Origin: a virus | Lineage: Duplodnaviria > Caudoviricetes | Reading direction: 5' to 3' (one strand) | IMG/VR virus record: IMGVR_UViG_3300036944_001223 | Span: 498 to 64,497 of that record | Length of the DNA stretch: 64,000 nucleotides | Shown here: piece after piece, positions 6,579 to 44,110 of the stretch | Position numbering within the stretch: the stretch's first letter is position 1 | Layout: the number at the start of each line of letters is the position of its first letter | The notes under the pieces: model-generated | Databases searched by the model: none | What the model saw: the letters and a program-made list of their open reading frames with translations, nothing else | Told to the model about the DNA's origin: nothing | Program-made: the position numbers and the translations under genes

Positions 6579-7766
6579 ATGCCGAAATTAACTAAAACAC
6601 TGATTGATAATTTAAAGCCTGCTGGCTTAGAACAATGGATATGGGATACCGAGCTGGAAGGATTCGGGATCAGAATTCAGGCGTCAGGCAGAAAAGTTTA
6701 TGTTATTCGGTACCGAGTTAAAAATGCCAATAAAACTCAACGCAAACAAAACATTGCTCGTTGTAGCGATATTCCTCCTGAAAAAGCAAGAGAGCTGGCC
6801 CGTAAAGTTTTTGCCCAAGTTGCTGAGGGCCTAGATCCTGTTATGGAGCGAAAAAACAAAGTAGAAGCCCCAACTATCAGTGAGATGTGCGACCGCTTCT
6901 TAAAAGAGCACTCACGGCCGTTCAAAAAGCCTCGCAGCGTTGAGCATGACGAAAGTAAAATTAAAAATTACATTAAGCCTCTGGCTGGCGAGCGTAAAGT
7001 GGCGGAGTTTACTAAGGCCGACGTGCTCACGATTCATGGCAGCCTATCAGACAAGCCTGCGACTGCTAACCAAGTATTGGCATTACTCAGCAAGGCATTT
7101 AACTTAGCTGAAGATTGGGGATGGCGAGAGCAGGGTTCTAATCCTTGTCGTCGAATTAAAAAGTACAAAATTAATGAGCGAGAGCTAATTTTAACTACTC
7201 CGCAAATTAAAGCGTTAAGCAACGCCTTAATATCACTAGAGACCGAAAATAAAATTACTCAGCCAATGGTAAATTTAGTTCGTTTGTTAATGCTGACCGG
7301 CTGTCGATTAAGAGAGATCATGCATGCAAAACTGTCTTGGGTTGATCATGAGCGCTCGCTACTTATATTGCCAGACTCTAAAGTGGGGCAACGAAAGATC
7401 CCGCTAGCTCCGCTTGCAATGGATATCATTAATTCAATACCGGATGGTGAGTGGATGATCCCTAGCAGAGTTAATGGGATCCCTATGGACTCACCCTACA
7501 AAGAGTGGTCAGCGATAAAATCTGCTGCTGATTTGCCTGCAGAGCTAAGATTGCATGACCTACGGCATACTGCGGGCTCACTTGGCCATATGGCTGGGCT
7601 CACTCAGCAGCAGATTGCGACGCTTTTAGGACATAAGCAGATAAGCACAACAGCTAGGTACCTTCACGGCTACCACGGTGATGGTGAGCGCATAGCTGAG
7701 ACTGTTAGTAACGTCATCTCGCTGGCTTGGAGCAATCCAGCAGCTAAATTGGTCGCTGCTATTTAG
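6579..7766 (+). CDS. int: Tyrosine integrase with N-terminal arm-binding domain
   Basis: WD.EL.GFGIR arm domain; TGCRLREI, DSK, LHDLRHT, LLGH, TARY catalytic motifs; GGAG RBS before ATG 6579. Confidence 0.95.
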   Translation: MPKLTKTLIDNLKPAGLEQWIWDTELEGFGIRIQASGRKVYVIRYRVKNANKTQRKQNIARCSDIPPEKARELARKVFAQVAEGLDPVMERKNKVEAPTISEMCDRFLKEHSRPFKKPRSVEHDESKIKNYIKPLAGERKVAEFTKADVLTIHGSLSDKPATANQVLALLSKAFNLAEDWGWREQGSNPCRRIKKYKINERELILTTPQIKALSNALISLETENKITQPMVNLVRLLMLTGCRLREIMHAKLSWVDHERSLLILPDSKVGQRKIPLAPLAMDIINSIPDGEWMIPSRVNGIPMDSPYKEWSAIKSAADLPAELRLHDLRHTAGSLGHMAGLTQQQIATLLGHKQISTTARYLHGYHGDGERIAETVSNVISLAWSNPAAKLVAAI

Positions 7767-7781
7767 TCGTGATAGCATTAT
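7766..7781 (+). promoter_or_regulatory. Putative late promoter copy upstream of TraR/DksA gene
   Basis: GTCGTGATAG-CATTAT. Confidence 0.55.
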
Positions 7782-7790
7782 TTTTAAATC

Positions 7791-7815
7791 AAGCCCTAAT
7801 CAGGGCTTCTTTTTT
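7791..7815 (+). terminator. Intrinsic terminator after integrase
   Basis: AAGCCCT-aatc-AGGGCTT then CTTTTTT. Confidence 0.65.
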
Positions 7816-7829
7816 ATTTTGAGGAAATT

Positions 7830-8033
7830 ATGTCTAATGAAAATCTAGCTCAAGATGTTGAACTAAAAGAATGGGAATTTAACAATCGAGCCAGAAACCC
7901 CGTCGTTAAATTTAGTCAAAAAGATGCTGAATTTGGCCCCGAGTTCTGCGTCAAATGTGATGAAAGCATGCCATTAGTCAGGCGTCAATACGGGTATAAA
8001 TTGTGCGTTACATGCAAGTCGAAAGAAGAATAG
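7830..8033 (+). CDS. TraR/DksA-type C4 zinc-finger protein
   Basis: C..C...MP..RR..G..LC..C pattern; GAGG RBS. Confidence 0.85.
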   Translation: MSNENLAQDVELKEWEFNNRARNPVVKFSQKDAEFGPEFCVKCDESMPLVRRQYGYKLCVTCKSKEE

Positions 8034-8713: not shown

Positions 8714-9168
8714 TTGACCACCCTTAGCGGTAATGGCGGCAGCATCGATGTGCTATCACGTCCGACTAAGTTATTTTGATATTTTATTGTGACATTCAGG
8801 GAATATTCCCCGGCAGGAACAGATGGAACGATCCCGCCCATAGCAGCTTTGTAGCAACCTTTTCGGGCTAGATAAACTGTGCTACTCAGCGGATATCTGA
8901 CCTTATCTTTCCCATCAATAGAGGGATAGACCTCTATACCAATGCCCTCAGAAGAGCAGATAACGCCTCTAACTGCAAACGGATCCCCTGCATGCATAAT
9001 TTGAGTTATCTGGTTTGATTCATTAGTCAGGTATGCCTCTTTAACTGTAATTGGATCCCCGCCTACAAGCACCATCCACCACATAATAAAGCCAGACAAA
9101 TAAAGGGCTACTAAGTAGCAGCTGGCGATTACCATGGCATTCATGCCTTTTTCGGCGGGGATTCTCAT
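8710..9168 (-). CDS. Membrane-anchored periplasmic protein in lysis cassette
   Basis: N-terminal TM, beta-rich C-terminal domain with two Cys. Confidence 0.55.
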   Translation of the reverse strand: MRIPAEKGMNAMVIASCYLVALYLSGFIMWWMVLVGGDPITVKEAYLTNESNQITQIMHAGDPFAVRGVICSSEGIGIEVYPSIDGKDKVRYPLSSTVYLARKGCYKAAMGGIVPSVPAGEYSLNVTIKYQNNLVGRDSTSMLPPLPLRVVK

Positions 9169-9368
9169 TTTATAAGTACCTTAGCCATTATCGCCATGAA
9201 TACCGACGTCATGACAGCTGTTGCTAGACCATATGCGATTAGCTTTACTGGCGCGAACTCCTGCTTACTAACAAAATCCTCAATGTCTTTTTGCAGATGT
9301 TTCACAGTTAGATTTAAATTAGAAACCTGAGTTTTCAGCTCTTGAAAATCTTCTGGATTTACTTGCAT
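9165..9368 (-). CDS. Small coiled-coil plus C-terminal TM protein (holin/antiholin-like)
   Basis: Hydrophobic C-terminus; coupled between endolysin and spanins. Confidence 0.5.
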   Translation of the reverse strand: MQVNPEDFQELKTQVSNLNLTVKHLQKDIEDFVSKQEFAPVKLIAYGLATAVMTSVFMAIMAKVLIK

Positions 9369-10063
9369 CGCGTCCCCTGCCCTTTTTCAAAAAAATCAAT
9401 GTACTTTTCGCGTCTCACATAAATGACATTTGAGACATATTCACGGTTTATGTGGAAAAAAGACTGACGATATCCTGGTCTTGGCATTTTAGATTTTAAG
9501 CTTGTCAGCTCTACATTGCCGGTCCACTTGCTAGGATCGCAGAGGTCAGTGTTAGCGCATAACCTCCTATCTTGCAATAACCCTCCTTCGCCGCCATTGT
9601 AAGCTGAGAGCGTAAAGCTGAGCTGATCTATCTCTGACGCCGCGCCTTTTTGCCTCTTGTATATCGAATGATCCATCTCGACAATAGCAGTTAATTGATA
9701 CACTGGATCAGCCCATCGCGCGGTAGTCCACCCGCGTAACGACGGAAACCTTAGCCTAAGCTCTTCTTGCTTATCAAACCTAACAGTGCCATCGGAATTA
9801 TATGCTGTAGTGACTTGGCCTAAGCCGCGCCCCCATTCTCTGCTAGTTTTTAGCTGAACATTTGGATTCCAGCACTTGGAGTGAGTCAGGCTTATGCAGC
9901 TTTCTTGCTCGACCTGAGAAGCCAAGAAAGAAGGTATAGGTGCATCTGGCCATATCTTTTGCTGAGAACATAATAGTGTCGGCAAATGCTCAGCGGCTCG
10001 CGCCGGTAGATCTTGAGCAAAGGCATTAAAACTTAATGCTGCCAGCAAAATAATCAGCTTCAT
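9359..10063 (-). CDS. Lytic transglycosylase endolysin with signal peptide
   Basis: QVEQES catalytic Glu, GLGQ, SAYNGG, NREYV; N-terminal signal peptide ending AFA. Confidence 0.9.
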   Translation of the reverse strand: MKLIILLAALSFNAFAQDLPARAAEHLPTLLCSQQKIWPDAPIPSFLASQVEQESCISLTHSKCWNPNVQLKTSREWGRGLGQVTTAYNSDGTVRFDKQEELRLRFPSLRGWTTARWADPVYQLTAIVEMDHSIYKRQKGAASEIDQLSFTLSAYNGGEGGLLQDRRLCANTDLCDPSKWTGNVELTSLKSKMPRPGYRQSFFHINREYVSNVIYVRREKYIDFFEKGQGTRCK

Positions 10064-10065: not shown

Positions 10066-10386
10066 CTATGCCTTAACCCACATTACTAACGCCATAAAAA
10101 CGATAGCAACAAATAATACTATAGCGGATGCTAGAACAGCTGCTGCCATATTGCCTTTTTCAGTTAAGATGATCAGCTTAGTTAGTTCGATCCTATGAAA
10201 CACGATACGAGATACAACTACGGCAATCCCAGCCATAATTGGTGAAAAAACAGTCCAGTCTACTAGAGTTTTTGCCATAGCAGGGTCAATAAAATACATT
10301 ACCAATAACGCAGGAACTATCAGAATTAATGCTGATTTATCAATTAACGCCCTAAGACGTTTACTTAAACTTTCAAATTTACTCAT
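10066..10386 (-). CDS. Putative holin (3 TM)
   Basis: Three hydrophobic segments directly upstream of endolysin; ATG 10386 with GAGGG RBS. Confidence 0.7.
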   Translation of the reverse strand: MSKFESLSKRLRALIDKSALILIVPALLVMYFIDPAMAKTLVDWTVFSPIMAGIAVVVSRIVFHRIELTKLIILTEKGNMAAAVLASAIVLFVAIVFMALVMWVKA

Positions 10387-10388: not shown

Positions 10389-10431
10389 AAAATGCCCTCA
10401 ATTGTCATTAAGGGCATTTTGTCATCACGAC
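10389..10431 (-). promoter_or_regulatory. Putative late promoter of lysis operon overlapping a 14-bp hairpin
   Basis: GTCGTGATGA-CAAAAT (10431-10416); stem 10389-10420 with one G-U pair. Confidence 0.7.
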
Positions 10432-12946: not shown

Positions 12947-14161
12947 TTAAGTCACGCTGACTCTTAGATTTTTAACAAATGGCCGAGAGGCCGCATTTCC
13001 ATTTAAAGTTAGCTTAGTCCTTAAATTAGCTTCATTAGTCCCTGTTATATAAAATTGAAATTCAAACCAATCGTCACCTAATGGTATTGGAGAGCCATAA
13101 GATGGAACAGGCACCCATGTATCTCCGGGGTCTGTTCCCGATATCTGAACAGCAACAGAAGCCCCTGACGGGATTAAAGCATCAATAATTATTTTGACAT
13201 TTGATCCTGCAGCATCGGCTGGCATAGCCCTAGATACATAATCAGCAGAATTTGATAACGTTCCTGAAATTATTTGAGCACCAGGCGCTATCATAGCCGA
13301 AGCTTGAGAGTTTGCTTTCAAACGAGCTTTAACCCCAACATCTCCTGTTATTCCGGCCGCTAAACGGATAACTTGACTGTCACCAGTTGAAATTACTGAG
13401 CTGTCAGGAAGAGTTAGCAAAATGTCACTTGTCGCAGAAGTTGTTGGATTATCTGTGACGGCTAAAACAATCAAATCAGTAGCATTAGTAACGGATACTG
13501 TGCCAAGATCAATAATTCTTTCAGTTTGATTATATTTTGCAGCTAAAAGCCTAAATGTAAGATCTCGATCTTGATGCGGTGTCCAAGTGCTTGCATTGCT
13601 TGAGCTAAGTAACACTCCTACTTGATATGGTTGATTGGTCACCCATCTTGAGTTTGTTTCGTCATACTTCCCAAGCTCAGCTACAGCAACAGAAGATACT
13701 GCGTCATTACATAAAACAACAATTGCATATTCAATGTTAGCTTGAATAGTAATCGGCAACTCAAAACTAAATCTATTCCAATTATTTACATTTATTGCTG
13801 CTGGTTTAAGACGGCACTCAGCAATCACAGATGAAGTCGGCAGACCAACTTGCGTCTCTCTTATTTGCAATATGATGTCACTAGAACCTTTTGCTGTCAC
13901 AAAAATATCTGCGCCGCCAAGCTGCGTTAAAGTTGGTAAAGAAAAGGTTTGCGCAAGCGGATCTACCGGGAAAAACCGCTGAGTAATTGTAGTGATACTT
14001 TGTCTAGCTTCTTGAACTAAATCACCTTGACCAAAAAATGATGCAGATCCAGAGCTGCCACCGGAACCATTAAAAATAACGGCTTTAGCTCCAGCTAAAA
14101 CGTTTGCTGGAATAGTAAACTTACCCTGAACTACGCCCTGTGAATCAGCTGTTACTGACAT
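12947..14161 (-). CDS. Baseplate/tail protein, C-terminal part of a DUF4815/VrlC-like protein
   Basis: G.FTIP, DPLAQTF, SSNASTWT.HQD.DL.F motifs; AGAGG RBS before ATG 14161. Confidence 0.75.
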   Translation of the reverse strand: MSVTADSQGVVQGKFTIPANVLAGAKAVIFNGSGGSSGSASFFGQGDLVQEARQSITTITQRFFPVDPLAQTFSLPTLTQLGGADIFVTAKGSSDIILQIRETQVGLPTSSVIAECRLKPAAINVNNWNRFSFELPITIQANIEYAIVVLCNDAVSSVAVAELGKYDETNSRWVTNQPYQVGVLLSSSNASTWTPHQDRDLTFRLLAAKYNQTERIIDLGTVSVTNATDLIVLAVTDNPTTSATSDILLTLPDSSVISTGDSQVIRLAAGITGDVGVKARLKANSQASAMIAPGAQIISGTLSNSADYVSRAMPADAAGSNVKIIIDALIPSGASVAVQISGTDPGDTWVPVPSYGSPIPLGDDWFEFQFYITGTNEANLRTKLTLNGNAASRPFVKNLRVSVT

Positions 14162-16621: not shown

Positions 16622-16637
16622 AGTCTTGCATCACGAC
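16622..16637 (-). promoter_or_regulatory. Putative late promoter
   Basis: GTCGTGATGC-AAGACT, followed by GGAGG RBS and ATG 16602. Confidence 0.75.
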
Positions 16638-18920: not shown

Positions 18921-18936
18921 AGTCTGACATCACGAC
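18921..18936 (-). promoter_or_regulatory. Putative late promoter
   Basis: GTCGTGATGT-CAGACT; its TGA is the stop codon of the upstream gene. Confidence 0.7.
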
Positions 18937-19547
18937 AGCTGGCTAATATCTATCTTAGCGCCCTCAATGGCTTCCGCTGTTGCAGAAATCCTCATAACAT
19001 CACCGACTGATTCGGCTGAAGAAAATGTGACTACTGATACCCTATAGTCAGCTTCTAAAGCAGATTTTACATATTCTGCCCCTAATGCTCCCGCCGCGGG
19101 GCCAGCAACAGATCCTTTGAGCTTCCAAACTAAGCACCCATATTCTGGATGCCTGTTTAGTTGGCCTTTCGTCGTAGTTACACGATGCTTTAGTTGCTGA
19201 GATAAATTTAATGTTCCGGCTGCAATAGATAGATCGCCAGTTTCATCAACAGTTAGCAACTTATTCGATAATAAACAGTCCCTCTCGTAAACTTGGCCTT
19301 TTTCAGCCTCGTCGGTGTAGACGCCAACAGGGGCCGGGACTTTTATTAATGAGCCAGTTATTTTGGTTGACTCTGTAACAAGTGATAGATCATCAGTTAA
19401 GTATGGGTAAACCAATTGATTTAACCACACTAACTCTGCCCATCTATTTGCGTCACCGAGCTCTCGTGATGCCACCGACTGTAAGGTATCAGATATGAAA
19501 GTTTCGACTAATCGATAATTTGGCTCACTTCGTTCAAATTCACTCAT
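18930..19547 (-). CDS. LysM-like plus gp25/gpW-like baseplate protein
   Basis: DTLQSVA.RELGDA.RW..L..LNQL; HPEYG; D.RV. Confidence 0.8.
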   Translation of the reverse strand: MSEFERSEPNYRLVETFISDTLQSVASRELGDANRWAELVWLNQLVYPYLTDDLSLVTESTKITGSLIKVPAPVGVYTDEAEKGQVYERDCLLSNKLLTVDETGDLSIAAGTLNLSQQLKHRVTTTKGQLNRHPEYGCLVWKLKGSVAGPAAGALGAEYVKSALEADYRVSVVTFSSAESVGDVMRISATAEAIEGAKIDISQLS

Positions 19548-20725
19548 TTAATTTCCACACCATTATTGATGATCGTTAAGTTCCTATCAATCTCTTGTAT
19601 TGACATTGGAGCTAGAACTGGATCAGCTCGTCCAACTGTAGAAATGCTAGAATATGCAGAGCTATTGACTCCCACGCTTCCTTTGCTAGTTTGCATTAAC
19701 TGAAAAGCATTACTTCCAGAGTATGAGCTTCCTAGTCTGCCACCAGTCGTTGACGAACAATTTGATGCTCCAAATAACCCATCATAATCATTATAAGTTT
19801 TACGTGGTCTCAATGAATTGCTGAATATACATAAAACTTCGTTATATGCTGCAGCAACTCTTGATATTGCTGACATCAGCCGGCTTGGCAATCCGGCTAC
19901 GGATGAGATGGTACGATTGATGTTGATACCTACAGCAGCCAAATCTGCCGCAATGCTAATTAAAGAGTTGGCGGAACTAAATACTCCGTCCTGAACGCTA
20001 AGGACAGCATCATTTACAGCATTAAAAACTTGAAGAGACTTTGCCGCAAAGTCGGCAATAGTTTTGCCGACAGGCATCAATGCGGCGTCTTTATATGATA
20101 CAGCCTCTTCTATAATCGATTGAATGTTTGCCGACAATTCTTGAAGTTTAACTATTGCACTAGATAAAGCATTTATGCCGGCTGGCACGCTACCTCGAAT
20201 TGGAACAATTTTAAATTGTTCGTCGATATTTGTAGATACTGCCTGGAGAGCGATTTGATACTGAAAAAGTAAAGGCCTAGATTTTGAGCGGCGTAATACA
20301 AACTGAGTTGGTACAACTGACCATGTGAAGTTGTCGAGCATATCAACAAACAAAAGTTTAATTAACGATGGATCAAGACCGTTGTCAATCGACCTCTGTT
20401 TAGCTTTGTGATAATCATGAGCTACCAGCTGATTTAACTGCTCAAATGCCGCGGCCCCATCTTTACCTCCGGCATACGTTTGCCTCCATCCAGTGTGGCC
20501 TGAAATAGTCAAAGATGGCAATCCTTCGCCAAAATTGTCAACCCAACCACTCACATTTCTGCCCAGAGTTTGAGTTATTGCGACGCGAGAAGGCTCCACT
20601 CTATTCAGATCTTCTGGTCTGATTTTTAGAGTAACAGGAGCGCTAAAACGTCCGTTTTCTTGCAATACAAATGCAATCGGGCGAACGCCTGCGCGTTGAT
20701 CTTTCGGTGGAGAGGTATTTTGCAT
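19544..20725 (-). CDS. Tail tube initiator-type baseplate protein
   Basis: PE.L...EP.R....QTLG...WVD.FG.G...LTISG.TG; position between spike and wedge genes. Confidence 0.6.
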   Translation of the reverse strand: MQNTSPPKDQRAGVRPIAFVLQENGRFSAPVTLKIRPEDLNRVEPSRVAITQTLGRNVSGWVDNFGEGLPSLTISGHTGWRQTYAGGKDGAAAFEQLNQLVAHDYHKAKQRSIDNGLDPSLIKLLFVDMLDNFTWSVVPTQFVLRRSKSRPLLFQYQIALQAVSTNIDEQFKIVPIRGSVPAGINALSSAIVKLQELSANIQSIIEEAVSYKDAALMPVGKTIADFAAKSLQVFNAVNDAVLSVQDGVFSSANSLISIAADLAAVGININRTISSVAGLPSRLMSAISRVAAAYNEVLCIFSNSLRPRKTYNDYDGLFGASNCSSTTGGRLGSSYSGSNAFQLMQTSKGSVGVNSSAYSSISTVGRADPVLAPMSIQEIDRNLTIINNGVEIK

Positions 20726-20731: not shown

Positions 20732-20747
20732 ATTCTCGCATCACGAC
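20732..20747 (-). promoter_or_regulatory. Putative late promoter, leaderless geometry
   Basis: GTCGTGATGC-GAGAAT-6nt-ATG. Confidence 0.75.
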
Positions 20748-26238: not shown

Positions 26239-26661
26239 TTAAATTTGAGCACCGACAACATCTAGTGCATTAAACTGTGCTGACTGCATTACAATCGCAT
26301 GTTTTGACACATCAATGTCGCCAGAAGCATAAGAACAGCCGAGGTATTTTCTCAGCAAAGTTCCATCATCTTTGTCAAACATTTCAAAGTCAAAAACTAG
26401 GCCTTGCAGCACACCATCGCCATTTTCCATGGCCACGCCGGCTTTGATCAGTGAGCCTTTGTTTAGCACCATGGCACTAACACTTAATGAGTGTCTAGCC
26501 ATCGTTGGCACGTACTCTTGAGCGTGAATGTCACCAATACCACTTGCTGGCTCGGGGCTATAATCATCATTAGAGCGAACAGATTGGAGAAGCCCAACCT
26601 GCTTGCCGTCCAGCACAACGGCAATTCGGTTGCCTGTGCGGGTTTTTAAGTTGCTTTTCAT
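26239..26661 (-). CDS. Tail tube protein
   Basis: 140 aa after sheath; TGNRI....DG..VG..QS, GIG.I...EYVP. Confidence 0.85.
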   Translation of the reverse strand: MKSNLKTRTGNRIAVVLDGKQVGLLQSVRSNDDYSPEPASGIGDIHAQEYVPTMARHSLSVSAMVLNKGSLIKAGVAMENGDGVLQGLVFDFEMFDKDDGTLLRKYLGCSYASGDIDVSKHAIVMQSAQFNALDVVGAQI

Positions 26662-26697: not shown

Positions 26698-26713
26698 ATG
26701 TTGGCATCACGAC
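26698..26713 (-). promoter_or_regulatory. Putative late promoter for tail tube
   Basis: GTCGTGATGC-CAACAT, just past the terminator-like hairpin at ~26731-26752. Confidence 0.75.
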
Positions 26714-26769
26714 CAACGTTATAAAAAATAAAAGCGCCAACATGGGCGCTTTTGTTATTTAAACTTTGG

Positions 26770-29564: not shown

Positions 29565-29597
29565 AGTTTGGCATCACGACAAGCGTGACGGCATAAT
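29565..29597. promoter_or_regulatory. Back-to-back putative late promoters
   Basis: Minus: GTCGTGATGC-CAAACT-7nt-ATG; plus: AGCGTGACGG-CATAAT (29582-29597). Confidence 0.7.
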
Positions 29598-29624: not shown

Positions 29625-30452
29625 ATGGCACAAGTTAATTATTCAATATCATTCGATGTAGGCTCTCAATTTGAACTTAACGCCGAGATATATCAGCAGA
29701 TATTCCCGCTTTTAAACCAAGCTGTTAAAGCTGTAGCCCAACAGACTGCCAGCAATTGGCAGCAATCAATATATAAAGCAAAATTATGGTCTGTTGAAAA
29801 AGATAAGTATGCTGGCAGCATAACTTGGTCGATGACTGGTGCGTTTACTGCCATAGTTGAAACCAGTTATCGATATGCGGAACAAATAGAAAGTGGCCGA
29901 CCAGCTCGAGACCTGAAGGCCATGCTAGGCACCAGCTTAAAAGTGCGCAGGTCTAAGGCTGGTAATCGTTACCTTTATATCCCATTCCGACATAATATCC
30001 CCGGTAGCGACGCGATAGGTCAGGCTATGCCTAAAAGCGTTTATGCTATGGCTAAACAAATGACGCCATCTGTTATTACTGGGATAAAATCAAGAGAGTC
30101 CGGAACTGGAGCCTATAACATTCACTCAAAAGGAAAAATGATGGTGCCTCAGAACGTCTATGCTTGGGGTGACAAACTACCATCAGGAATGGGGCAAAAG
30201 ATAAAACCTGAGCATCATAGCGATCCTTATGCTGGGATGGTTAAGTTTAATACCAGCACACCCGGCGGAGCTAAAAGCAGCACTTATCTAACATTTAGAG
30301 TGATGAGCGAAAAATCTCAGGGCTGGATTGTACCTGCTCAACCTGGTCAACATATAGCTAAGAATGTAGCAGATGAAATGCGTCCAAAAGCTGAGAACGC
30401 CTTTTCCAAAGCTATATCTATGAGTTTGTCAAAAATAAAAGCTGGCGAGTAG
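29625..30452 (+). CDS. Neck/tail-completion protein on the opposite strand
   Basis: YA..IE.G....DLK.ML, G.RYL.IPFRH, YLTFRVMSEKS.GWI.P..PG. Confidence 0.65.
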   Translation: MAQVNYSISFDVGSQFELNAEIYQQIFPLLNQAVKAVAQQTASNWQQSIYKAKLWSVEKDKYAGSITWSMTGAFTAIVETSYRYAEQIESGRPARDLKAMLGTSLKVRRSKAGNRYLYIPFRHNIPGSDAIGQAMPKSVYAMAKQMTPSVITGIKSRESGTGAYNIHSKGKMMVPQNVYAWGDKLPSGMGQKIKPEHHSDPYAGMVKFNTSTPGGAKSSTYLTFRVMSEKSQGWIVPAQPGQHIAKNVADEMRPKAENAFSKAISMSLSKIKAGE

Positions 30453-34393: not shown

Positions 34394-35029
34394 TTAATTA
34401 ATTTTAGACAGAACGTCAGCGGGAGCCGCTACGCCTGAGTTAAAAGCAGCTTCACAGCGAGCAACGTCAAGACCTGTAATGCGTCCTGCTGTATGTGCGC
34501 TCTGCGCTTTAGCCATGATCTGACCAGGTGAATCTTGTTCTGGTTCGGACTTGGCTAGAGTTGTGGGCTTTTCAGCGATGGAGACCATCGTCTTGCGCCC
34601 GCGCCCTTGGCTAGATAGAGTTTCAACTCTTTGGCTAAGAGACTTAATTAGTTCGCTTTGGCTTTTTAATGCGCCCAGCGTAGTTTGTAACGCCTTAGTC
34701 AGCGTTTCGTCATGCAATTGCAGACGAGAATCATGCTCAGCTAGCGATTTAGTCAGTTGTTCAACATCAACAACCTCATACTCTTCGCCATCTACGACCA
34801 TAGATTTGGTCATATGCTCTTTTTTCTCATCTTCTGCTGACTCAGCGCCTTCTTCAGTTGACTCAGGCTCTTCACCTTCATCTTCTTCTTCGCCTTCGTC
34901 ACCTTCCGCGGCAGCGGCTTGGATCGTTTTATCATCCGCGCCGTCGTCCTGCGGGAGTGCTTTAGCAAGCGTATCCTGCTCAGCAGCCGCCGCTTCGAGT
35001 TCGGCTAGTAGCTCATTGAATTTGCTCAT
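34394..35029 (-). CDS. Scaffold-like acidic coiled-coil protein
   Basis: Between protease and capsid; ATGA overlap with protease; seven x-K-[S/A] motifs. Confidence 0.75.
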   Translation of the reverse strand: MSKFNELLAELEAAAAEQDTLAKALPQDDGADDKTIQAAAAEGDEGEEEDEGEEPESTEEGAESAEDEKKEHMTKSMVVDGEEYEVVDVEQLTKSLAEHDSRLQLHDETLTKALQTTLGALKSQSELIKSLSQRVETLSSQGRGRKTMVSIAEKPTTLAKSEPEQDSPGQIMAKAQSAHTAGRITGLDVARCEAAFNSGVAAPADVLSKIN

Positions 35030-35913
35030 TGTCGCAAGCTCCGTGTAGTAAGACTTCGTTTCAAATCGCCAATAAAGCGATCCACCCACTCTGTGGCCTC
35101 GTCGGGCTGCAGATTGAATTGTTTAACAGAGAACGTTATTAATCCGTCCCCGGTCATTTGTAATGGCTGCCCTTCAATCATGCAATTTGACAGCTTGTCT
35201 CTAAAATCAAAATATGATTGTGGAGTACCGTCAAGCGACTGCATTCTGATAGCGCTGCCACCCGATAAATTAGCCATATCAGATCCGTATCCAGCCTCGA
35301 GAGACTTTGACATAACGAATCCGTTTAAAGATTTGGCAAAAACTGCAACAGGGGCTGTTTGAGCTTCAGGAAGATGCTGATTAACTGGCGTGCGGCTCAA
35401 TGCTAAATTTGTCCATCGAACTTTTGTTACTACAGCGACTTTTTCATGAGTTCGCGGATCTATGACTAGACTTTTAGCTAAAACAGAACCACCAACAGAG
35501 GGGTACCATCTAGCCGGAGGGTTCAAAGCCGTCATTGATTCCCAAACCATATTTGCATTTCTAGCCAACTCGCCATCGCCCTTGTATAGCTGTGCCTTAA
35601 CAAAGGTGGTTTCGCCCTTTACTACCACATCAACAGGTCTGCCTATCTCGAAAGACATGGGGTTTACAATACCCATTTTGGCGCCGATAAGAGTGTAATG
35701 ATCTAGGTCGATGTTACCAAATTTTAAAAAGTTAGCAGCGCTTTCTTCAAGCGCTTTAGCGAGCACTCGCTCGCCCTGCTGATCAACGCCTTCGTTGCTG
35801 GCTTCTAAATAGATGAAGCGTTCCCCACCCTCTTCTTTGGGCGTGGCTTTCAGCAGTGTATCAACGCTGAAAAAATCCGGTATATCAGCTAATAGCTGTT
35901 CGTCTTTGTTCAT
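35026..35913 (-). CDS. Prohead protease
   Basis: EAS.E.VDQQGE, IDLDH, IGRP, SVGG, LALS..PVN resemble HK97-family maturation proteases. Confidence 0.85.
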   Translation of the reverse strand: MNKDEQLLADIPDFFSVDTLLKATPKEEGGERFIYLEASNEGVDQQGERVLAKALEESAANFLKFGNIDLDHYTLIGAKMGIVNPMSFEIGRPVDVVVKGETTFVKAQLYKGDGELARNANMVWESMTALNPPARWYPSVGGSVLAKSLVIDPRTHEKVAVVTKVRWTNLALSRTPVNQHLPEAQTAPVAVFAKSLNGFVMSKSLEAGYGSDMANLSGGSAIRMQSLDGTPQSYFDFRDKLSNCMIEGQPLQMTGDGLITFSVKQFNLQPDEATEWVDRFIGDLKRSLTTRSLRQ

Positions 35914-35919: not shown

Positions 35920-35935
35920 AGTGTGGCATCACGAC
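35920..35935 (-). promoter_or_regulatory. Putative late promoter, leaderless geometry
   Basis: GTCGTGATGC-CACACT-6nt-ATG, no SD. Confidence 0.8.
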
Positions 35936-36244: not shown

Positions 36245-39200
36245 CTATAATAATGACTGGCCAGATGCGGCCATTTTCTTTCTTGCGCTTATGTAGCCGG
36301 CAACGCCTGAATCATCCAAACCATCCATTGGGTCAGCCATCATATCCTTTAGCGCATATTTCTTCATGAGTCGGTCGTATGCTTTACGCTCTTCAGGGTG
36401 ATCACCATGAAGGTCGATCAGCTCAATTGCATTTTTCTGACCGATACGATCGATCCTTGCTTGTCGCTGGCTATGCGTTTTTGCTGTCTGGCTAATATCA
36501 TGCTGGATCAAATACTGCCCTGATTGTAAATTCATGCCAACGGCGCCCGCATCAGAAGCAATCAGGATATCAGCTTGAGCCTCACCCTTCTCAGGATTGA
36601 ATAGTTTACGCTTAGCGTCCTTATCCTTAGCACTGTCAGATCCAGTAATAGTGACCACTTTTTTACCAATGGCCTCCATCGCTTGGCGGTACTGCTCAAC
36701 GCTGGCTTTATTTCGCGCAAATATCACGCCCTGCTTACCGTTTCTTTGCTTTACCATTTCAACAGCATGAGCAACTTTAGCATTGTCAGGGTGAGTGTTA
36801 ATTATTTTGTTCACTGCCGAAGATCTGAGTATTCCTAAGCTGTTCTGTATGCCTTTAGCAATATTCTCATGCTCTGACTCTGGTACCCCATCGAATGAGT
36901 TGGGACTGATCGCTTTAGCCGCTGCGATATCAACCTTGCCCGTAGTTCTCGCTGCCCTCGCTTTGATCATATGCTGAGATAACTCATCTAATGCCTTTTT
37001 CTGCCCAGCTGAGAGCGGCACCTTTTCCGTTAGCCGGCTACGAGCAACATCTGGAGAAATTGACGTAGGAAATACATACCGAGCCATTTCTCGTTTAAGG
37101 GCTTGCTTACTCGCAATCGTGTCAGCGCCATATTTGCGCATAAACTCATTGCGATCACTGTATTTCTCAGGATCCATTTTCTGCAGCAAAGAATGGATCT
37201 CACTAGAGTCGTTTTTCACTGGGTCGCCGCTCGCATAAACGTGATACGGAGTATTATGCCCGACGGCCTCAACAACGTTAGCTAGACTTGAGTTCTCCTT
37301 ACCTGCTCGATTTAACGTATCGTGAGCCTCATCAACAAAGGAAGCGTCAAAGTTAATGCCTTCCTTCTTCATAGTATCTGCGGCCCACTGCTTGCGCTCA
37401 GCCGTGCTCATACTGCCAATCTTAGACGTCATCTCGGACTCGCTCACCCCCGCATGCTGAGATGCTAGATGGATCATGTCGTCACGGAATGATTGATGCG
37501 TCATTACAGCAATATGCGTTTCAGGATCTTTATACGCCGCAATTCGTTCTGCTTGACTTGCACCAGGCTGAATATGCGTCTTGAATTTTCCAGCCTCCAA
37601 TAAACGCAGCGCCTCGCCGGAGAACTGGCCCTGCACAATACTTGGGACCAGCATGATCGAGCGCTTAACTTTGCCAAGCCCACTGAGATGAGCATGGGCA
37701 CCCAACATTATGTTAGTTTTACCGCTACCAGCGCCAGCTGCCAACGCCACGCGCTTATTTGCGGCGATCAGTTTTATAGCTCGTTGCTGAGGGGCATACT
37801 TGCCAGACATGCTGATCCCCCATAACTTTGTGGGCTGATTAGGCTTAAAGTTTTGCCCCACAATCCCCATCATTCCTGCAATTTGATTTTCTGCCTCGGT
37901 ACCAAGCGTCACTTTAGATGAGTCGGCGCCAGTGATCCCGTTAAAATCAATTCCATTGCGCAACTGGCCTTTGCCGGCTTTCAATGGTGATGACGGGTTT
38001 AATTTATTGTGATGCTGCACAAACGAGTTAGATAATTTCGACCTTACCATATCCTGAGCTGTTGCATAGGCATTGGCTGCGCCGCTCATCTGGCCGACAA
38101 AATCTTTCCAACCCATACCAGTAGAATCAGTGAAATGGTCTCTCAATACCCGCTGATCGGTTTTACTTAGCTCACCAATCTGCTTATACGCAGTCACACC
38201 TTCAGGATGTTCCGACAATGCTCGATGAAGAGCATCAACAGACTTTTGATTGACCTCAAATTTTTGAGAATTCAACTCTGGACTATCTGCTTCTGCTTGC
38301 TCAACAATGCCGGGCTTCACTTCCATAGCTAAATCAGGTCTGTTGTCCACGCCAAGAGGTAGCCAGCCATCCTCGTCTTGATCGCCTCGTATTATTGACA
38401 GATTCCGCTTAACTTGCTGAACATCATCACGAGAAACTGGCTTAGCCAACCTATCCATGCCGTCGGCATTCACCTTTAAGAACGTGTCGCCACCAACCCG
38501 CTCAAGCTCATAGTCACCAGGCATTAAGCCTATCGCCCGAATCTGTTTAATTGCCTGCTGCGCCCCGATTTGACCTAGTGACACCTCAAAGTGATCTTGC
38601 TTACCCTGCTTTAATGCCATAACCAATGAAGCATTAGCCTCCATCTCACCAAGTGATTGCCCTAATATCCGCTGAGCATCACCAATGGCAGCGCGACGGC
38701 GTCCATTGAGCTCTTGAGCTAGAGACAGTTCAGCTCCATTGGTTGCCTCAGCGGATATCTCTATATCCTTGGCTGCATCAGTGAGCTCTCTGGCTTTTTT
38801 CAGGCTCTCCGTGCTGGTTTGCATGTAATGGTTTAAATGCCAATCCTGCATTCCTGCAGTAACATGCCCGAGCTCTTCAGGAGATAAATCCGATTGCAGT
38901 CTCCGCGCCAATATCTGCGATGCGCCAGCAATACCCAAAACGTCGACTACAGACCGATCAACTAGCGCTTCGCCGCCAACAGCAAGGGCCAATGAATTGA
39001 TTGAATTATAAGCCCCAACTCCAATATGACCGCCTAATGTATCCTCTGGCGAACCGCCAGCGATCCGGTGGACTTCAGATAAAAAAGCTTTTGTCTGAAC
39101 AGTATTTAGCTCGCTTTCAAGATCCTTAGCCATCTTCGCATCAATATCAGCGTCAGATGCCTCGATGACAAACGCCTTAGGTTCAGCTTTTGCTTTATCT

Positions 39201-40132
39201 ATCTCAGAGTTAGCCGATCTTGCCGCCTTTTCAATTAAAGCAAGTTTCTTACCTTCTTTGAGTATATCAACAGCGTCTTTAGCACTGATCAAGGAAAAAT
39301 CAGCCTCTGGTGCGGCAGGCTCTTTAACGCCATCAAGCTCCTTTTTGAGTAGATCTGCTGATTCTTTTTTAGCAAAAATAGCCTTCTTCTGCTCGTCAGT
39401 CATGCCCGCCAGCTTAATTTGGTCTGCCTCTGCCTGCAATGCCTCATCTGTAAGCCCAGAAGCCTCAGCGCGAGCCTTGTAGTCTGGATTGAACCCTAGG
39501 CCAGCTTTTGCTTTTTTTGAGGGGTCTAGGTCGGACACTGAGAGACTGGCAGGATCATCGCTGAATAAAGGCACCTCACCGATGCCAGCTTCCTTACGCG
39601 CGGACGGATCATTAACAAGTTTATCCTGGCTTTGTTTAATGACCATTTTCGCGCGTCTAAGAAGGTTCGAATGATGCTGGTTTCTTAGTTTATTAATTGC
39701 CGCATCAGACAGGTGGGAATACTCAGCATCATTAAACTCAAGATCCGCCTCATCCCACCCAACTTTTTTACCTACCGCACTAATAACTGATTTTTCAGCA
39801 GCTGTTTTTTGCGCTTTAATGTCTTTTCTGGCTGCTTGCTTTGCATCATGAATGCCGGCATCTTTATCCGCGCTAATCTGCTCTTTTCGTTTAGCTTTAG
39901 CCTCATCTTTCTTTTGCTTTGATTCTTTAGCGTACTCGCCTTTTGATTTAACGTTCCGAAGCTTCAGATAATTTAAACTGCCACCAGCGCCGCCAATTAC
40001 TCGAGCTGATCCGTCAGGCTGAGGCTGAATAAGAACAGCCTGACCTTTACCTGAGCCATTACCGCCGTGAACAGTGATCCAGTGTGCGTCCTCAGGGATA
40101 GCGGACGCTTTAGTTAAGATAACCTTTTTCAA
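36245..40132 (-). CDS. Large SNF2-type helicase/translocase in head operon
   Basis: PQQRAI, GAGSGKT, VDEAH, ASGDPVKND.SE, DAGAVGMNLQ, QRQARIDRIGQ; long helical N-terminal region. Confidence 0.85.
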   Translation of the reverse strand: MKKVILTKASAIPEDAHWITVHGGNGSGKGQAVLIQPQPDGSARVIGGAGGSLNYLKLRNVKSKGEYAKESKQKKDEAKAKRKEQISADKDAGIHDAKQAARKDIKAQKTAAEKSVISAVGKKVGWDEADLEFNDAEYSHLSDAAINKLRNQHHSNLLRRAKMVIKQSQDKLVNDPSARKEAGIGEVPLFSDDPASLSVSDLDPSKKAKAGLGFNPDYKARAEASGLTDEALQAEADQIKLAGMTDEQKKAIFAKKESADLLKKELDGVKEPAAPEADFSLISAKDAVDILKEGKKLALIEKAARSANSEIDKAKAEPKAFVIEASDADIDAKMAKDLESELNTVQTKAFLSEVHRIAGGSPEDTLGGHIGVGAYNSINSLALAVGGEALVDRSVVDVLGIAGASQILARRLQSDLSPEELGHVTAGMQDWHLNHYMQTSTESLKKARELTDAAKDIEISAEATNGAELSLAQELNGRRRAAIGDAQRILGQSLGEMEANASLVMALKQGKQDHFEVSLGQIGAQQAIKQIRAIGLMPGDYELERVGGDTFLKVNADGMDRLAKPVSRDDVQQVKRNLSIIRGDQDEDGWLPLGVDNRPDLAMEVKPGIVEQAEADSPELNSQKFEVNQKSVDALHRALSEHPEGVTAYKQIGELSKTDQRVLRDHFTDSTGMGWKDFVGQMSGAANAYATAQDMVRSKLSNSFVQHHNKLNPSSPLKAGKGQLRNGIDFNGITGADSSKVTLGTEAENQIAGMMGIVGQNFKPNQPTKLWGISMSGKYAPQQRAIKLIAANKRVALAAGAGSGKTNIMLGAHAHLSGLGKVKRSIMLVPSIVQGQFSGEALRLLEAGKFKTHIQPGASQAERIAAYKDPETHIAVMTHQSFRDDMIHLASQHAGVSESEMTSKIGSMSTAERKQWAADTMKKEGINFDASFVDEAHDTLNRAGKENSSLANVVEAVGHNTPYHVYASGDPVKNDSSEIHSLLQKMDPEKYSDRNEFMRKYGADTIASKQALKREMARYVFPTSISPDVARSRLTEKVPLSAGQKKALDELSQHMIKARAARTTGKVDIAAAKAISPNSFDGVPESEHENIAKGIQNSLGILRSSAVNKIINTHPDNAKVAHAVEMVKQRNGKQGVIFARNKASVEQYRQAMEAIGKKVVTITGSDSAKDKDAKRKLFNPEKGEAQADILIASDAGAVGMNLQSGQYLIQHDISQTAKTHSQRQARIDRIGQKNAIELIDLHGDHPEERKAYDRLMKKYALKDMMADPMDGLDDSGVAGYISARKKMAASGQSLL

Positions 40133-41776: not shown

Positions 41777-42012
41777 TTTAGCTCCTCACCTAACTTAAAC
41801 TGAAATAAATCAGGATTATCAGGATAGACCAAGGGCCTAAACGTACCCTCTAAAGCAGAAAAAAAATCAAAAACTATATCAAGAGCCACATGCTTAGTCT
41901 GAACTTTAAACTCACCAGATGGATCCCCGATATATACTGGCACGCCATAATAGGAACCGTGATGAGTGAATCCTAACTCTTTAGCTTTTTTTACTGTGAT
42001 ATAACCCAGCAT
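41773..42012 (-). CDS. Hypothetical phage protein
   Basis: GFTHHGSYYGVPVY; coupled in operon. Confidence 0.65.
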   Translation of the reverse strand: MLGYITVKKAKELGFTHHGSYYGVPVYIGDPSGEFKVQTKHVALDIVFDFFSALEGTFRPLVYPDNPDLFQFKLGEELK

Positions 42013-42013
42013 T

Positions 42014-42370
42014 TCAAGCCTCTATCTCTGGCAGATCTACAGTTTTACCAGCAAGAATATGAGTGCAATCACCCAAAAACTGAATCTTCCCATCAGTAAC
42101 AAATGAGTGACATATTCCACACTCAAAACCGTCTCTTTCTTCATCAGGATTTTCTTCAAAATAAGTACACCAACATGGTTCACCTTTTTCCCAGTGTTTA
42201 GCAAAATGCCCGTAACTAGCTAATATAGAAGGCTGAAATGTTGGCCTGTCAAAATTGCCATTGAAAGACCATGCTGGTCCGCTGGATCCTCCAATGTTTA
42301 ACGAATGGTACATTTTGCAACCTGGACATTTAAATGATGCTATATTTTTAGTTATTTTAACTTTGCTCAT
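42014..42370 (-). CDS. Zn-binding phage protein (DUF6527-like)
   Basis: CPGC..YH, W.FNG...RPTF.PSI, CHSFVTDG.IQFL.DCTH.LAG.TV.LP. Confidence 0.75.
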   Translation of the reverse strand: MSKVKITKNIASFKCPGCKMYHSLNIGGSSGPAWSFNGNFDRPTFQPSILASYGHFAKHWEKGEPCWCTYFEENPDEERDGFECGICHSFVTDGKIQFLGDCTHILAGKTVDLPEIEA

Positions 42371-44088
42371 GGCTCTGGCTTCCAGATTGGCAACCCAAAA
42401 GACTTGGCCATTTGATCGCCATCATCTTCTTGATCTTGCTTGTCATCAGGTTTGCTTTCAGGATCTTCTTCGTTAGAAGATTTGTTTTCATCTTTAGGAT
42501 CTTGTTGGTCTTTAGGATCTTGCCCAAAATCTCCGCCGCCATCTGGATTGCCGTAGTCCTCGCTGGACGATGCTATTGATTGCATATACGCGCCCATTAA
42601 ATTCTGGTTCAACGGAGCGTTGTTTAGCACCTCGTCTTTGATCTCATCCCATCCGCGAACCTTTCGAGCTTCACCCCATGTTAGCAGCGTAGTTTCTTCA
42701 TCCCACTGTTGTTTTGCATCGGTTTCGTCGAGACCTGACCAGCGGAATAAGTATTTATCACTAAACTCAGCAACAACGTAGTCAGAAAAAACATCTTCAA
42801 AATAAGACAGAAGAGGGCGAAGGCCCTTATCTTTAGAGTTAATCAGCTTCTCTTCTGTATCCGATCCAGATAACGAGCTTGCGCCATTGGTGAAACTCTC
42901 GAAATTTATCTCATCAGGAGCCATGCCGTAGATCGCGCAAATAATTGATGTTAAAAACGTCATCCATTTGGAGAACATCATTTCATTTACGTCGACACCA
43001 AAATTCTCGAAACTTGCTTTTGACTCTTGGTTTTTACTGACCATTACAGGCAGAGTCCAAGCGTTATTGATCCCCTTCACCATCGAGTTCCAATAACGCT
43101 TAAAGGCGCTCATATCGTCTTGGCTATAATCACCAGACAAGTGAAGTAAGCCCTTAGGGATCGCATTGGAGTCAAAATATTTGTTGTTGTACGTCATGGC
43201 ATTCAGGAAGCCGGTCACAACTTTTACTAATAGCTCTGTTTCTGACATGCCGTAGCCGCCGACCATGACATCAGTACGCGGGTTCCTTGGCACATAGATC
43301 AGGTCGTCATACGTGTAAGCCGCTCTGATTTGGCCTTGGGCAACCTGCAAGGCAAATAGTTCGTCATCGCCTTGGTAGCCTTCCTCATTACACAGTCGTA
43401 TCGTCGCGCCATCGACAGCATACATGCCGTCCATCCCTTTAGACTTATCGCGCTTGTATTCAGTCTCGATCGCAGCGCTATCCATTGTTAGGCTGTCTCG
43501 AGTAAGTTTGGCCACAAAGTTAGAGAAATTATCACGTTTAAGTCTTGCGCGTTGACGCGGGTTATTTTCCCATCCGCAATTTGTAAAAAAGCTTTCAAGC
43601 AGAACAATACTCTTTTTTTCCGCCTCACCTAATTTCGCAGAGGGATCTTTCGACTTGATATTAAATCCTGGTCCTTTACCGCCTTCTGATACGCGGCAAA
43701 AACGCCTTAATTGGCGTTGGCGAGTGAGTATTACAGCGGAAAGAATCGGCGTCTGATCGACCATTGTTCGCATCATATCAAACGAGAATGCACTATTTTT
43801 CTCGTACCACTCACCCATCATTTGGACGCGGGTATCATCGAGATATAACGATTGCATACCGGGCTGCCCAGTGGCGATAGCGCGGCTAGGAAAAGGGATC
43901 ACATTGGGCTTAGATAAAGCTTTAGTAAACTGCTGATCCTGATATTGCTCCGCAACATAGCGGACCAGTTCCGTCATATTGGGAACAGTCGAGGGCATCG
44001 CGTCTTTTTGAGCTTCGCGCAATGCATCCTGCCGCTCATCTTGTGGCGCTGCAGGGTTATGTGAAACTTCTAAGGCTTTATCTGTCAT
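42367..44088 (-). CDS. Portal protein
   Basis: RDSLT.D, VDGATIR, PRNP, YGMS..E, F...AIPKGLL, M.F..W, YG..PDEI, SKDKGL.PLL, EAR...G. Confidence 0.9.
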   Translation of the reverse strand: MTDKALEVSHNPAAPQDERQDALREAQKDAMPSTVPNMTELVRYVAEQYQDQQFTKALSKPNVIPFPSRAIATGQPGMQSLYLDDTRVQMMGEWYEKNSAFSFDMMRTMVDQTPILSAVILTRQRQLRRFCRVSEGGKGPGFNIKSKDPSAKLGEAEKKSIVLLESFFTNCGWENNPRQRARLKRDNFSNFVAKLTRDSLTMDSAAIETEYKRDKSKGMDGMYAVDGATIRLCNEEGYQGDDELFALQVAQGQIRAAYTYDDLIYVPRNPRTDVMVGGYGMSETELLVKVVTGFLNAMTYNNKYFDSNAIPKGLLHLSGDYSQDDMSAFKRYWNSMVKGINNAWTLPVMVSKNQESKASFENFGVDVNEMMFSKWMTFLTSIICAIYGMAPDEINFESFTNGASSLSGSDTEEKLINSKDKGLRPLLSYFEDVFSDYVVAEFSDKYLFRWSGLDETDAKQQWDEETTLLTWGEARKVRGWDEIKDEVLNNAPLNQNLMGAYMQSIASSSEDYGNPDGGGDFGQDPKDQQDPKDENKSSNEEDPESKPDDKQDQEDDGDQMAKSFGLPIWKPEP

Positions 44089-44094
44089 AGGGAA

Positions 44095-44110
44095 ATCTTG
44101 GCATCACGAC
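44095..44110 (-). promoter_or_regulatory. Putative late promoter of portal operon, leaderless geometry
   Basis: GTCGTGATGC-CAAGAT-6nt-ATG, no SD. Confidence 0.8.

Follow-up and report, generated by a model that had tools for sequence, protein, structure and literature searches.

The stretch of DNA analysed here is a window of 64,000 nucleotides (nt) from the IMG/VR virus record IMGVR_UViG_3300036944_001223, and our subject is a short sequence element, the box GTCGTGAY followed at a fixed distance by a hexamer, which recurs just upstream of virion and lysis genes and is probably their late promoter. The record is 64.5 kilobases (kb) long and is estimated to be 70% complete; the window covers all but 497 of its bases. 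It encodes a large terminase, a portal, a head protease, a major capsid protein, a tail sheath, a large polyvalent protein and an integrase. As a whole, the window is the incomplete genome of a phage, not a prophage within a host genome, a point that the initial annotation of this DNA had missed: the source is a temperate myovirus of about 90 kb, of which the window represents about 70%. The temperate lifestyle is judged by gene content, in particular by the integrase in the window, and a passage in PMC11256456 predicts the same lifestyle for the related phage Touem01.

A nucleotide search of the cultured phage collection with the window gives no match. By protein, the window groups with myoviruses of 86–96 kb, namely the Pseudomonas phages Touem01 (whose capsid protein is 75% identical), Dolphis and Jeremy, Morganella phage Mecenats66, Aeromonas phage ST4, Bordetella phage PHB04, Yersinia phage fHe-Yen8-01, Enterobacter phage phiT5282EW and Escherichia phage ECML-606-1. 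Thermus phages and SPO1/Twort-like phages are far more distant structural relatives; for the SPO1/Twort-like phages the distant relationship is seen in the capsid, portal and head genes. The family whose element we describe comprises Touem01, Dolphis/Jeremy, PHB04, ST4, fHe-Yen8-01, ECML-606-1/phiT5282EW and many uncultured relatives; one of its core genes has 553 relatives at 90% clustering, many of them on contigs of about 90 kb. The G+C content of motif-bearing genomes ranges from 43% (the window) to 65% (PHB04 and the genome G005).

The core sequence GTCGTGAT occurs nine times in the window, compared to a mean of 0.90 (largest 4) in 100 shuffles, and the longer pattern GTCGTGATRNNANNNT, i.e., GTCGTGAT-RN-NANNNT, also occurs nine times against a mean expectation of 0.04. 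The whole record has one forward and eight reverse matches, and none to the reversed control pattern. Eight of the sites share the minus strand with the virion and lysis genes; the ninth is on the plus strand. The initial annotation had listed these nine exact sites and a tenth, degenerate one, each oriented toward a gene; we recover the nine with the same coordinates, strands and hexamers, and each site faces the next open reading frame. Its description of the hexamers holds as well: the first base is C in eight, A in one and G in one, never T, while A at position 2 and T at position 6 are present in all ten. The element is all-or-none, since copies with one mismatch are at chance level, both in the window (4, compared to 5.3 expected in resampled sequence) and in all eight genomes tested. 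Sites resembling consensus sigma-70 promoters are at or below chance in the late region (47 versus 49.0 and 24 versus 32.3 expected). The sites and the genes they face are listed in Table 1.

Table 1. Copies of the element in the window, with the genes and hairpins that accompany them (aa, amino acids; ZnF, zinc finger)
Feature	Position	Strand	Remarks
Element GTCGTGATAG-CATTAT	7766..7781	+	Without TG at -15/-14; starts on the last base of the integrase stop codon
Intrinsic-terminator-like hairpin with T-run	7791..7808	+	7 pairs, 4 of them G-C; tail CTTTTTTATT; between the 7766 element and the gene at 7830
TraR/DksA-like ZnF gene	7830-8033	+	phrog_54, E 3.3e-6; downstream of the terminator 7791-7808
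Putative late promoter element GTCGTGATGA-CAAAAT	10416..10431	-	Faces the presumed lysis cassette (10066-10386 and genes down to 8034)
Putative late promoter element GTCGTGATGC-AAGACT	16622..16637	-	19-nt leader with GGAGG, then ATG 16602
Putative late promoter element GTCGTGATGT-CAGACT	18921..18936	-	35-nt leader, then TTG start 18885 of a baseplate-region gene
393-aa virion protein gene	19544-20725	-	phrog_1011; faced by the 20747 site
Putative late promoter element GTCGTGATGC-GAGAAT	20732..20747	-	ATG 20725, 6 nt past the hexamer; predicted leaderless
140-aa gene	26239-26661	-	36-nt leader with GAGGA after the 26713 element
Putative late promoter element GTCGTGATGC-CAACAT	26698..26713	-	Just past the terminator-like hairpin 26730-26753 that follows the sheath gene
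Putative late promoter element GTCGTGATGC-CAAACT	29565..29580	-	ATG 29557, 7 nt past the hexamer; predicted leaderless; 276-aa gene 28727-29557
Degenerate variant AGCGTGACGGCATAAT, box AGCGTGACGG-CATAAT	29582..29597	+	Two mismatches to the core
Sole plus-strand gene of the virion cluster	29625-30452	+	275 aa; downstream of the 29582 site
Head maturation protease gene	35026-35913	-	phrog_1028, E 2e-27; faced by the 35935 site
Putative late promoter element GTCGTGATGC-CACACT	35920..35935	-	ATG 35913, 6 nt past the hexamer; predicted leaderless
Portal gene	42367..44088	-	phrog_12, E 8.8e-42; first gene of the operon from the 44110 site
Putative late promoter element GTCGTGATGC-CAAGAT	44095..44110	-	5' of the portal gene; ATG 44088, 6 nt past the hexamer; predicted leaderless

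We examined the anatomy of the element in a logo of 68 sites from seven genomes. From -62 to -23 every position carries less than 0.17 bit, so there is no -35 and no UP-like signal, and the earlier remark that no consistent -35 accompanies the sites holds across the family; the exception is the degenerate tenth site of the window, with TTGGCA at 18 base pairs (bp). As aligned, the signal is a composite of 16 bp: GTCGTGAY at predicted positions -22 to -15, two weakly constrained bases with G preferred at -14 (49 of 68 sites), and NANNNT at -12 to -7. The hexamer usually reads CA..AT or CA..CT, with C at -12 in 43 sites, A or C at -8 in 65, and A at +1 in 38. Measured against a canonical sigma-70 promoter, A-11 and T-7 are present in all ten window sites, T-12 is present in none of them (and in only 6 of the 68 family sites), and a -35 at 16–18 bp is missing. 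The extended -10 "TG" (T-15 G-14) is found in eight of the nine exact window sites; in the logo, position -15 is C in 35 sites and T in 33, so that this TG is not conserved in the relatives. The box had been described as non-palindromic, which stands only in part: 35 of 68 sites have the GTCGTGAC form, which makes an imperfect inverted repeat (GTC-GT-GAC). Further on, no position between +3 and +28 is conserved, and a complete genome has 7–13 such promoters. Neither finding fits late control of the Lambda Q type, in which one late promoter combines a DNA site between -35 and -10 with a conserved -10-like pause element in the initially transcribed region.

The initial annotation had proposed a motif search in related prophages. 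In the related phages, the pattern GTCGTGAYNNNANNNT (GTCGTGAY-N2-NANNNT) occurs 13 times in Touem01, 12 in Dolphis, 11 each in PHB04 and Jeremy, 9 each in phiT5282EW and ECML-606-1, 8 in ST4 and 7 in fHe-Yen8-01, with no match to the reversed control in any of them. The element is thus present and strand-biased in eight of the nine cultured relatives, with nearly every copy on the coding strand, and it is likewise found, with a strand bias, in all 12 of the larger IMG/VR relatives, against a single control match over all of these. In five genomes, 53 of the 64 occurrences of GTCGTGAY have A and T at hexamer positions 2 and 6 with the fixed 2-nt spacing. Of 26 distinct portal loci from IMG/VR, 21 have the exact element 5' of the gene, three have a copy with one mismatch and two have no copy. 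From genome to genome the sites stand before orthologous genes (portal, protease, the gene that follows the neck cluster, tube, baseplate genes and the lysis cassette), and in the relatives they also precede terminase, polyvalent protein and DNA-methylase operons. We did not find the element before recombination or replication genes. These comparisons support a dedicated class of putative late promoters: one fixed composite element without a -35, placed only before morphogenesis, lysis and, in relatives, DNA-methylase operons. The timing implied by "late" is inferred from the content of the genes behind the sites. A search of the open-access literature, which covers neither subscription journals nor supplements, found no description of the motif, and the word "promoter" occurs zero times in the text of the two family genome papers (PMC9503643, PMC11256456).

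Several sites deserve comment beyond Table 1. The portal site sits in a divergent intergenic region, where a promoter is needed within about 120 bp of the portal ATG in any case. Predicted leaderless sites orthologous to the 35935 site are found in Touem01, PHB04, ST4 and Dolphis. The 140-aa product of 26239-26661 would be the tail tube, as its position after the sheath gene (phrog_279) suggests, and the gene starting at 18885 has an orthologue annotated as baseplate J-like in Touem01. The terminase gene of the window (47861-50467) has no late element; in its place is a terminator-like hairpin, ccccgcatagcgggg, with a T-run, then a sequence of the extended -10 type, TGgTATGAT (50470-50535, minus strand). 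In Touem01, by contrast, the late element does precede the orthologous terminase gene, whose ATG follows at a distance of 6 nt.

Among the cultured relatives, Mecenats66 alone has no exact copy of the element. Ordinary Shine-Dalgarno leaders precede its late genes, and relics with one mismatch remain at three orthologous positions (record positions 39560, 46183 and 64878). Mecenats66 has lost the element, and we count it as a supporting exception. The Thermus phage phiMa has no copy of the motif. In the 4.64-megabase genome of E. coli K-12 there are 11 matches, compared to 10 for the reversed control, while ECML-606-1, which infects E. coli, has nine copies in 95 kb. The lack of enrichment in K-12 indicates that the element is not a host promoter class and favours a reader specified by the phage; together with the conservation of the element across a family that lives on different hosts, it argues for such a reader at about -22 to -13.

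Could host RNA polymerase nevertheless read the element, alone or with a conserved host factor, the timing then coming from template copy number or from modification of the host polymerase? The motif does not vary between phages that infect Pseudomonas, Bordetella, Aeromonas, Yersinia, Enterobacter and Escherichia, no universal DNA-binding protein of the phages was found, and the TG of the window sites would suit such a reading. The family also packages a large polyvalent protein, which is annotated as an ADP-ribosyltransferase in Dolphis. These points are opposed by the K-12 counts, by the absence of TG from roughly half of the family sites, by the rarity of T-12 and by the missing -35. Sites of this kind are expected to be very weak for the unaided holoenzyme. 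We consider a host reader quite improbable.

The position of the start codons leads to a prediction that had been missed in the initial annotation. An ATG lies 5–8 nt after the hexamer at 36 of the 68 sites (at 6 nt in 22 and at 7 nt in 9). Four of the nine exact window sites have an ATG 6–7 nt past the hexamer that opens a long frame (portal 44088, protease 35913, the 276-aa gene 29557 and the 393-aa gene 20725), and many sites in the relatives likewise have such ATGs opening long reading frames. Among the portal loci from IMG/VR, the ATG is 5–7 nt past the hexamer in 18 of 24 by script, or in 19 after reading of locus L012, where an earlier out-of-frame ATG had been scored. If the hexamer occupies -12 to -7, +1 falls on the A of this ATG, and the messenger RNA (mRNA) would have neither leader nor Shine-Dalgarno sequence. 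This geometry implies that the late mRNAs are leaderless at about half of the sites, as a prediction. The other window sites would give leaders of 19–48 nt with GGAGG- or GAGGA-like sequences.

The fixed distance to the ATG at about half of the sites also raises the question of whether the element acts in RNA, as a translation enhancer or a processing site for genes that lack a Shine-Dalgarno sequence. In favour of this, GUGAU is complementary to a portion of the 3' tail of 16S ribosomal RNA. On the other hand, the sequence is GUGAC at half of the sites, a form that the 16S tail does not match; 32 of the 68 sites have no ATG 5–8 nt after the hexamer; and the genes at five of the nine window sites have a Shine-Dalgarno-like sequence of their own at a variable distance (12–48 nt). 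Action in RNA would leave the A-11/T-7 signature unexplained, and the divergent region before the portal gene would need a promoter anyway. It is an exceedingly improbable account of the element.

Some sites overlap the end of the preceding operon. The 10431 element starts on the last base of the stop codon of an 831-aa tail fibre-like gene and is followed by a weak hairpin (about 10394-10415) with a T-run, a hairpin read by eye and not reported by the terminator scan. Clearer layouts, with the element inside a terminator, occur in ST4 (3897 and 37545), PHB04 (90389) and Dolphis (28081; all record coordinates). In these nested layouts the 5' arm of the hairpin lies at about -6 to +3; at the 10431 site it lies upstream of the predicted start. 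It looks like a recurring insulating layout: transcripts from upstream would terminate, whereas those started at the promoter, without the 5' arm of the hairpin, would escape. The arrangement at the 7766 site is different in that the terminator 7791-7808 lies wholly downstream of the predicted start. No exact element precedes the gene orthologous to 7830 in Touem01 or ST4.

The tenth site, 29582 on the plus strand, is back to back with the 29580 site on the minus strand, 1 bp apart, between divergent genes. Its inclusion in the initial list stands with a qualification. By count alone it is at chance level (88 sites with two mismatches were seen, compared to about 70 expected), and it also fits an ordinary promoter, TTGGCA-18-CATAAT, with 10 of 12 matches. 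However, the orthologous divergent gene is preceded by a (N)NCGTGAY or GTAGTGAT box, with the same 2-nt spacing to a NANNNT hexamer, in all seven motif-bearing genomes examined, and four of these seven variants have an ATG 5–6 nt after the hexamer. The back-to-back arrangement at 29565-29597 is itself conserved in seven relatives. We therefore accept 29582 as a putative degenerate member of the class. The 275-aa product of the gene behind it is probably a neck protein, as judged from a structure model (predicted local distance difference test, pLDDT, 78) whose weak match, to the neck chain of SaPI1, is only local.

The closest precedent is the late promoter of phage P1, as had been proposed from the sequence. 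P1 late promoters are activated by the phage protein Lpa with host SspA. In the annotated P1 record (NC_005856) they consist of a 9-bp "-22 region", 4 bp and a -10 hexamer, and the six sites that we read are AAGTGACTT-cagt-CAGAAT, AAGTGACTA-gtgt-TAAATT, AAGTGATTT-gcat-TATCCT, AAGTTACTT-tgca-TACCAT, AAGTTACTT-atct-TACAAT and AAATGACTA-ctcg-TAGAAT. Both P1 (LPs, LPsit, LPdar, LPlyz, LPpro, LPmat, LPpac) and the present family have a compact box of 8–9 bp located 5' of an A2/T6 hexamer, and no -35 is annotated for the P1 sites. Both are temperate myoviruses of about 90 kb with many copies before morphogenesis, lysis and packaging operons. The GTGAY core is found in three of the six P1 boxes read, and one P1 hexamer, CAGAAT, also starts with C. 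The two systems differ in sequence and in geometry. The P1 box, AAGTNACTT, is a 9-bp inverted repeat, in contrast to GTCGTGAY in the family; the P1 design, AAGTGACTT-N4-TANNNT, has a spacing of 4 bp instead of 2 bp; the P1 box is at about -25 to -17, whereas that of the family is at -22 to -15; and the first base of the hexamer in the family is mostly C and not T. None of the six P1 sites has an ATG within 8 nt of the hexamer, while about half of the family sites are predicted to be leaderless. A tblastn search with P1 Lpa against the window, itself an incomplete genome, and 11 related genomes gave a best E-value of 0.26, and searches with Lpa, PacA and PacB found nothing. By this comparison, the element appears to work like a P1 late promoter and is not a member of the P1 system.

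P1 also suggests another reading, in which GTCGTGAY is the dispersed operator of a phage repressor, like the asymmetric C1 operators of P1, and shuts weak constitutive promoters in the lysogen. The phages are temperate by gene content, and the annotation of the P1 record includes many dispersed monovalent C1 operators. However, the exact 2-nt spacing between box and hexamer at every site is what would be expected of one composite recognition element; promoters without a -35, TG or T-12 would have little activity to repress; the sites stand only before late genes; and we found no universal repressor-like gene. This reading we hold to be very improbable.

A further class of late promoters is read by sigma factors of phage origin. 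The T4 late promoter, TATAAATA, is recognized through gp55. A passage in PMC7698491 describes the late promoters of Kayvirus and of SPO1/Twort-like phages as a long -10 box, TGTTATATTA, without a -35, and attributes them to a phage sigma. These promoters and the element of the present family share the lack of a -35, one extended element ending at -7 and placement before late genes only. They differ in that the family sequence is unrelated, that its upstream half is G+C-rich and that the family has no recognizable conserved sigma gene. A highly diverged sigma-like factor encoded by the phage could replace sigma-70 and read such a long "-10 only" promoter, as with T4 gp55 or the Kayvirus late sigma. 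The contiguous 16-bp element, the avoidance of T at -12 and the distant relationship of the head genes to those of SPO1/Twort-like phages are all in keeping with this. The domain searches speak against it: Sigma70_r2 (PF04542) was found in none of five genomes, Sigma70_r4 (PF04545) above the cut-off in one of 11 and r4_2 (PF08281) in none of 11, searches whose models a very diverged sigma could escape. In addition, the only non-structural proteins universal in the present family are cysteine-rich, and the model made for one of them shows neither a helical, sigma-like fold nor a match in the PDB. We think a diverged sigma unlikely.

Leaderless output has a parallel elsewhere. Middle and late transcripts of the Thermus phage phiYS40 reportedly start at the initiation codon from promoters without a -35 (work by Sevostyanova et al. 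from 2007 is said to have found this). The host of phiYS40 is Thermus, in which leaderless mRNAs are common, whereas the hosts of the present family are gamma- and beta-proteobacteria. The element is best read as a putative variant of those phage late promoters that lack a -35 and depend on a factor, and its predicted leaderless output is unexpected.

Which protein, then, might read the box? The initial annotation had named two candidates in the window, and neither survives. The first, the winged helix-turn-helix (wHTH) protein at 44206-44631, has no homologue in 11 related genomes; it has a weak HTH_45 match (E 0.00095, below the cut-off), and the gene divergent from the portal gene differs between phages. 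The second, the TraR/DksA-like protein at 7830-8033, has clear matches in only five of the ten motif-bearing complete genomes; its match in G011 is weak (E 0.015), and there is none in fHe-Yen8-01, phiT5282EW, G001 and G010. A regulator of the AraC family is present in five phages (six records: Touem01, Dolphis, Jeremy, ST4, PHB04), and its HTH_18 domain is absent from fHe-Yen8-01, phiT5282EW and ECML-606-1, which have 7–9 sites each. In five relatives this regulator (Touem01 8850-9716, Dolphis gp100 and orthologues) is encoded 3' of a methylase operon that has the motif, and it may itself be expressed late. A small Cro-like helix-turn-helix (HTH) protein, 1060-1275 in the window, with a near-invariant ARATPDRW helix, was present in all of the first seven genomes and undetected in Mecenats66. 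On wider sampling it occurs in 5 of 12 IMG/VR records and in one of the five near-complete ones, and a profile search finds a distant copy in the motif-less Mecenats66 and none in four complete motif-bearing genomes. The sequence upstream of this small gene, window 1276-1340, is conserved between phages (tcaaat-aag-ataaact-like) and may be an early promoter or operator common to the family. None of the window's conserved genes encodes the factor. Of the initial interpretation, then, what stands, by comparison only, is the dedicated late-promoter class, the phage-specified reader and the P1 precedent; both candidate factors in the window fall.

If the virion and terminase modules are set aside, only two genes, an adjacent pair (Touem01 90981-91565 and 84-398), are conserved in 10 of 10 complete motif-bearing genomes. 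They encode a cysteine-rich protein of about 175 aa, with eight invariant or near-invariant cysteines, and a zinc-ribbon protein of about 100 aa. Neither gene falls within the window, and a search of the incomplete record from which the window comes gave no match to them. For the larger protein there are 34 relatives, all unnamed and without a Pfam domain, and it has no Pfam or PHROGs match of its own. Its structure model is confident (pLDDT 91.5) and has no fold match in the PDB (Foldseek best E 0.13; VIA-align best Z 2.8), and it has no profile similarity to Lpa (hhalign probability 0.1%). No late element was found within 22 kb upstream of its gene. The pair is also present in the motif-less Mecenats66, which counts against a role in transcription, and is absent from phiMa. 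According to a passage in PMC9503643, the pac site of Mecenats66, which was validated by experiment, falls where the two genes meet, and a second terminase subunit was not found by the authors. The pair may serve packaging or replication, and as the reader it is only a lead. Directly upstream of it, the relatives have an iteron-rich, AT-rich, origin-like region (Dolphis about 66430-66690, ST4 about 13835-14095, fHe-Yen8-01 about 51985-52245), in which phage-specific iterons (ggtaac, gttccag, ctgtcac or ggtagc) flank a run of short AT-rich repeats. It is tempting to hypothesize that the pair is an undescribed kind of transcription factor that would run the entire late programme of the family from the 16-bp promoter, with the portal, protease and baseplate mRNAs made leaderless on purpose, which would imply a translation switch directed by the phage too; we regard this as not very likely.

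The explanation that we favour, and consider likely as a whole, is that the element is the late promoter of the family, used by host RNA polymerase together with a phage-specified reader of GTCGTGAY. The hexamer would be melted by the host polymerase through recognition of A-11 and T-7 by region 2 of a sigma-70-family factor. With no -35 and T-12 avoided, the sites would be silent alone, and a phage-specified protein reading the duplex GTCGTGAY would switch them on, much as Lpa does at the "-22 box" of P1. Transcription would start 6–7 nt past the hexamer, at about half of the sites on the A of the ATG. The portal, protease, several baseplate and neck mRNAs would then be leaderless, and the others would have leaders of 12–48 nt with an ordinary Shine-Dalgarno sequence. 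At sites that overlap the terminator of the preceding operon, the new transcript would start inside or after the 5' arm of the hairpin.

Several points weigh against this explanation. No reader was found: each DNA-binding candidate that we tested lacks a counterpart in at least one genome with the motif. The motif, so invariant in phages whose portal proteins are only 50–70% identical, could instead be read by a highly conserved component of the host. The 7766 site may be non-productive, as a complete terminator precedes its gene. Leaderless mRNAs are usually poorly translated in gamma-proteobacteria, which makes the predicted geometry surprising rather than expected. Finally, promoter activity, late timing, the start points and the need for a phage factor are all deduced from sequence and comparison.

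Other features of these genomes were noted in passing. The polyvalent protein of the window (36245-40132, minus strand; 1295 aa; phrog_62, E 1.5e-196) is encoded inside the head module and is reminiscent of the packaged anti-restriction proteins of the P1 DarB type; the Dolphis counterpart annotated as an ADP-ribosyltransferase has no tblastn match to it. A DUF6527 protein (42014-42370, minus strand; E 4.4e-14) is encoded just 3' of the portal gene, and among the five cultured genomes compared only ST4 shares it. In Touem01 the helicase orthologue (71134-73827, 897 aa) carries Hint and LAGLIDADG homing-endonuclease domains, i.e., an intein; the window copy of the helicase (1-1002, minus strand) runs off the end of the record and is open there.

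The element provides a testable map of late operons in a phage family that is common and yet has hardly been studied. It also frames the question of the late-gene switch, given that none of the sigma, Lpa, AraC, TraR and Cro-like HTH candidates is conserved with the element, and Mecenats66 offers a natural comparison for finding the reader. Should the sites prove silent in the host and dependent on the factor, a 16-bp promoter of this kind would be useful as a genetic part. If the predicted start points are true, translation of major virion genes would rely on leaderless mRNAs in Pseudomonas, Escherichia, Yersinia, Bordetella and Aeromonas, and the family would provide a natural system for leaderless translation, and for its control, in proteobacteria.

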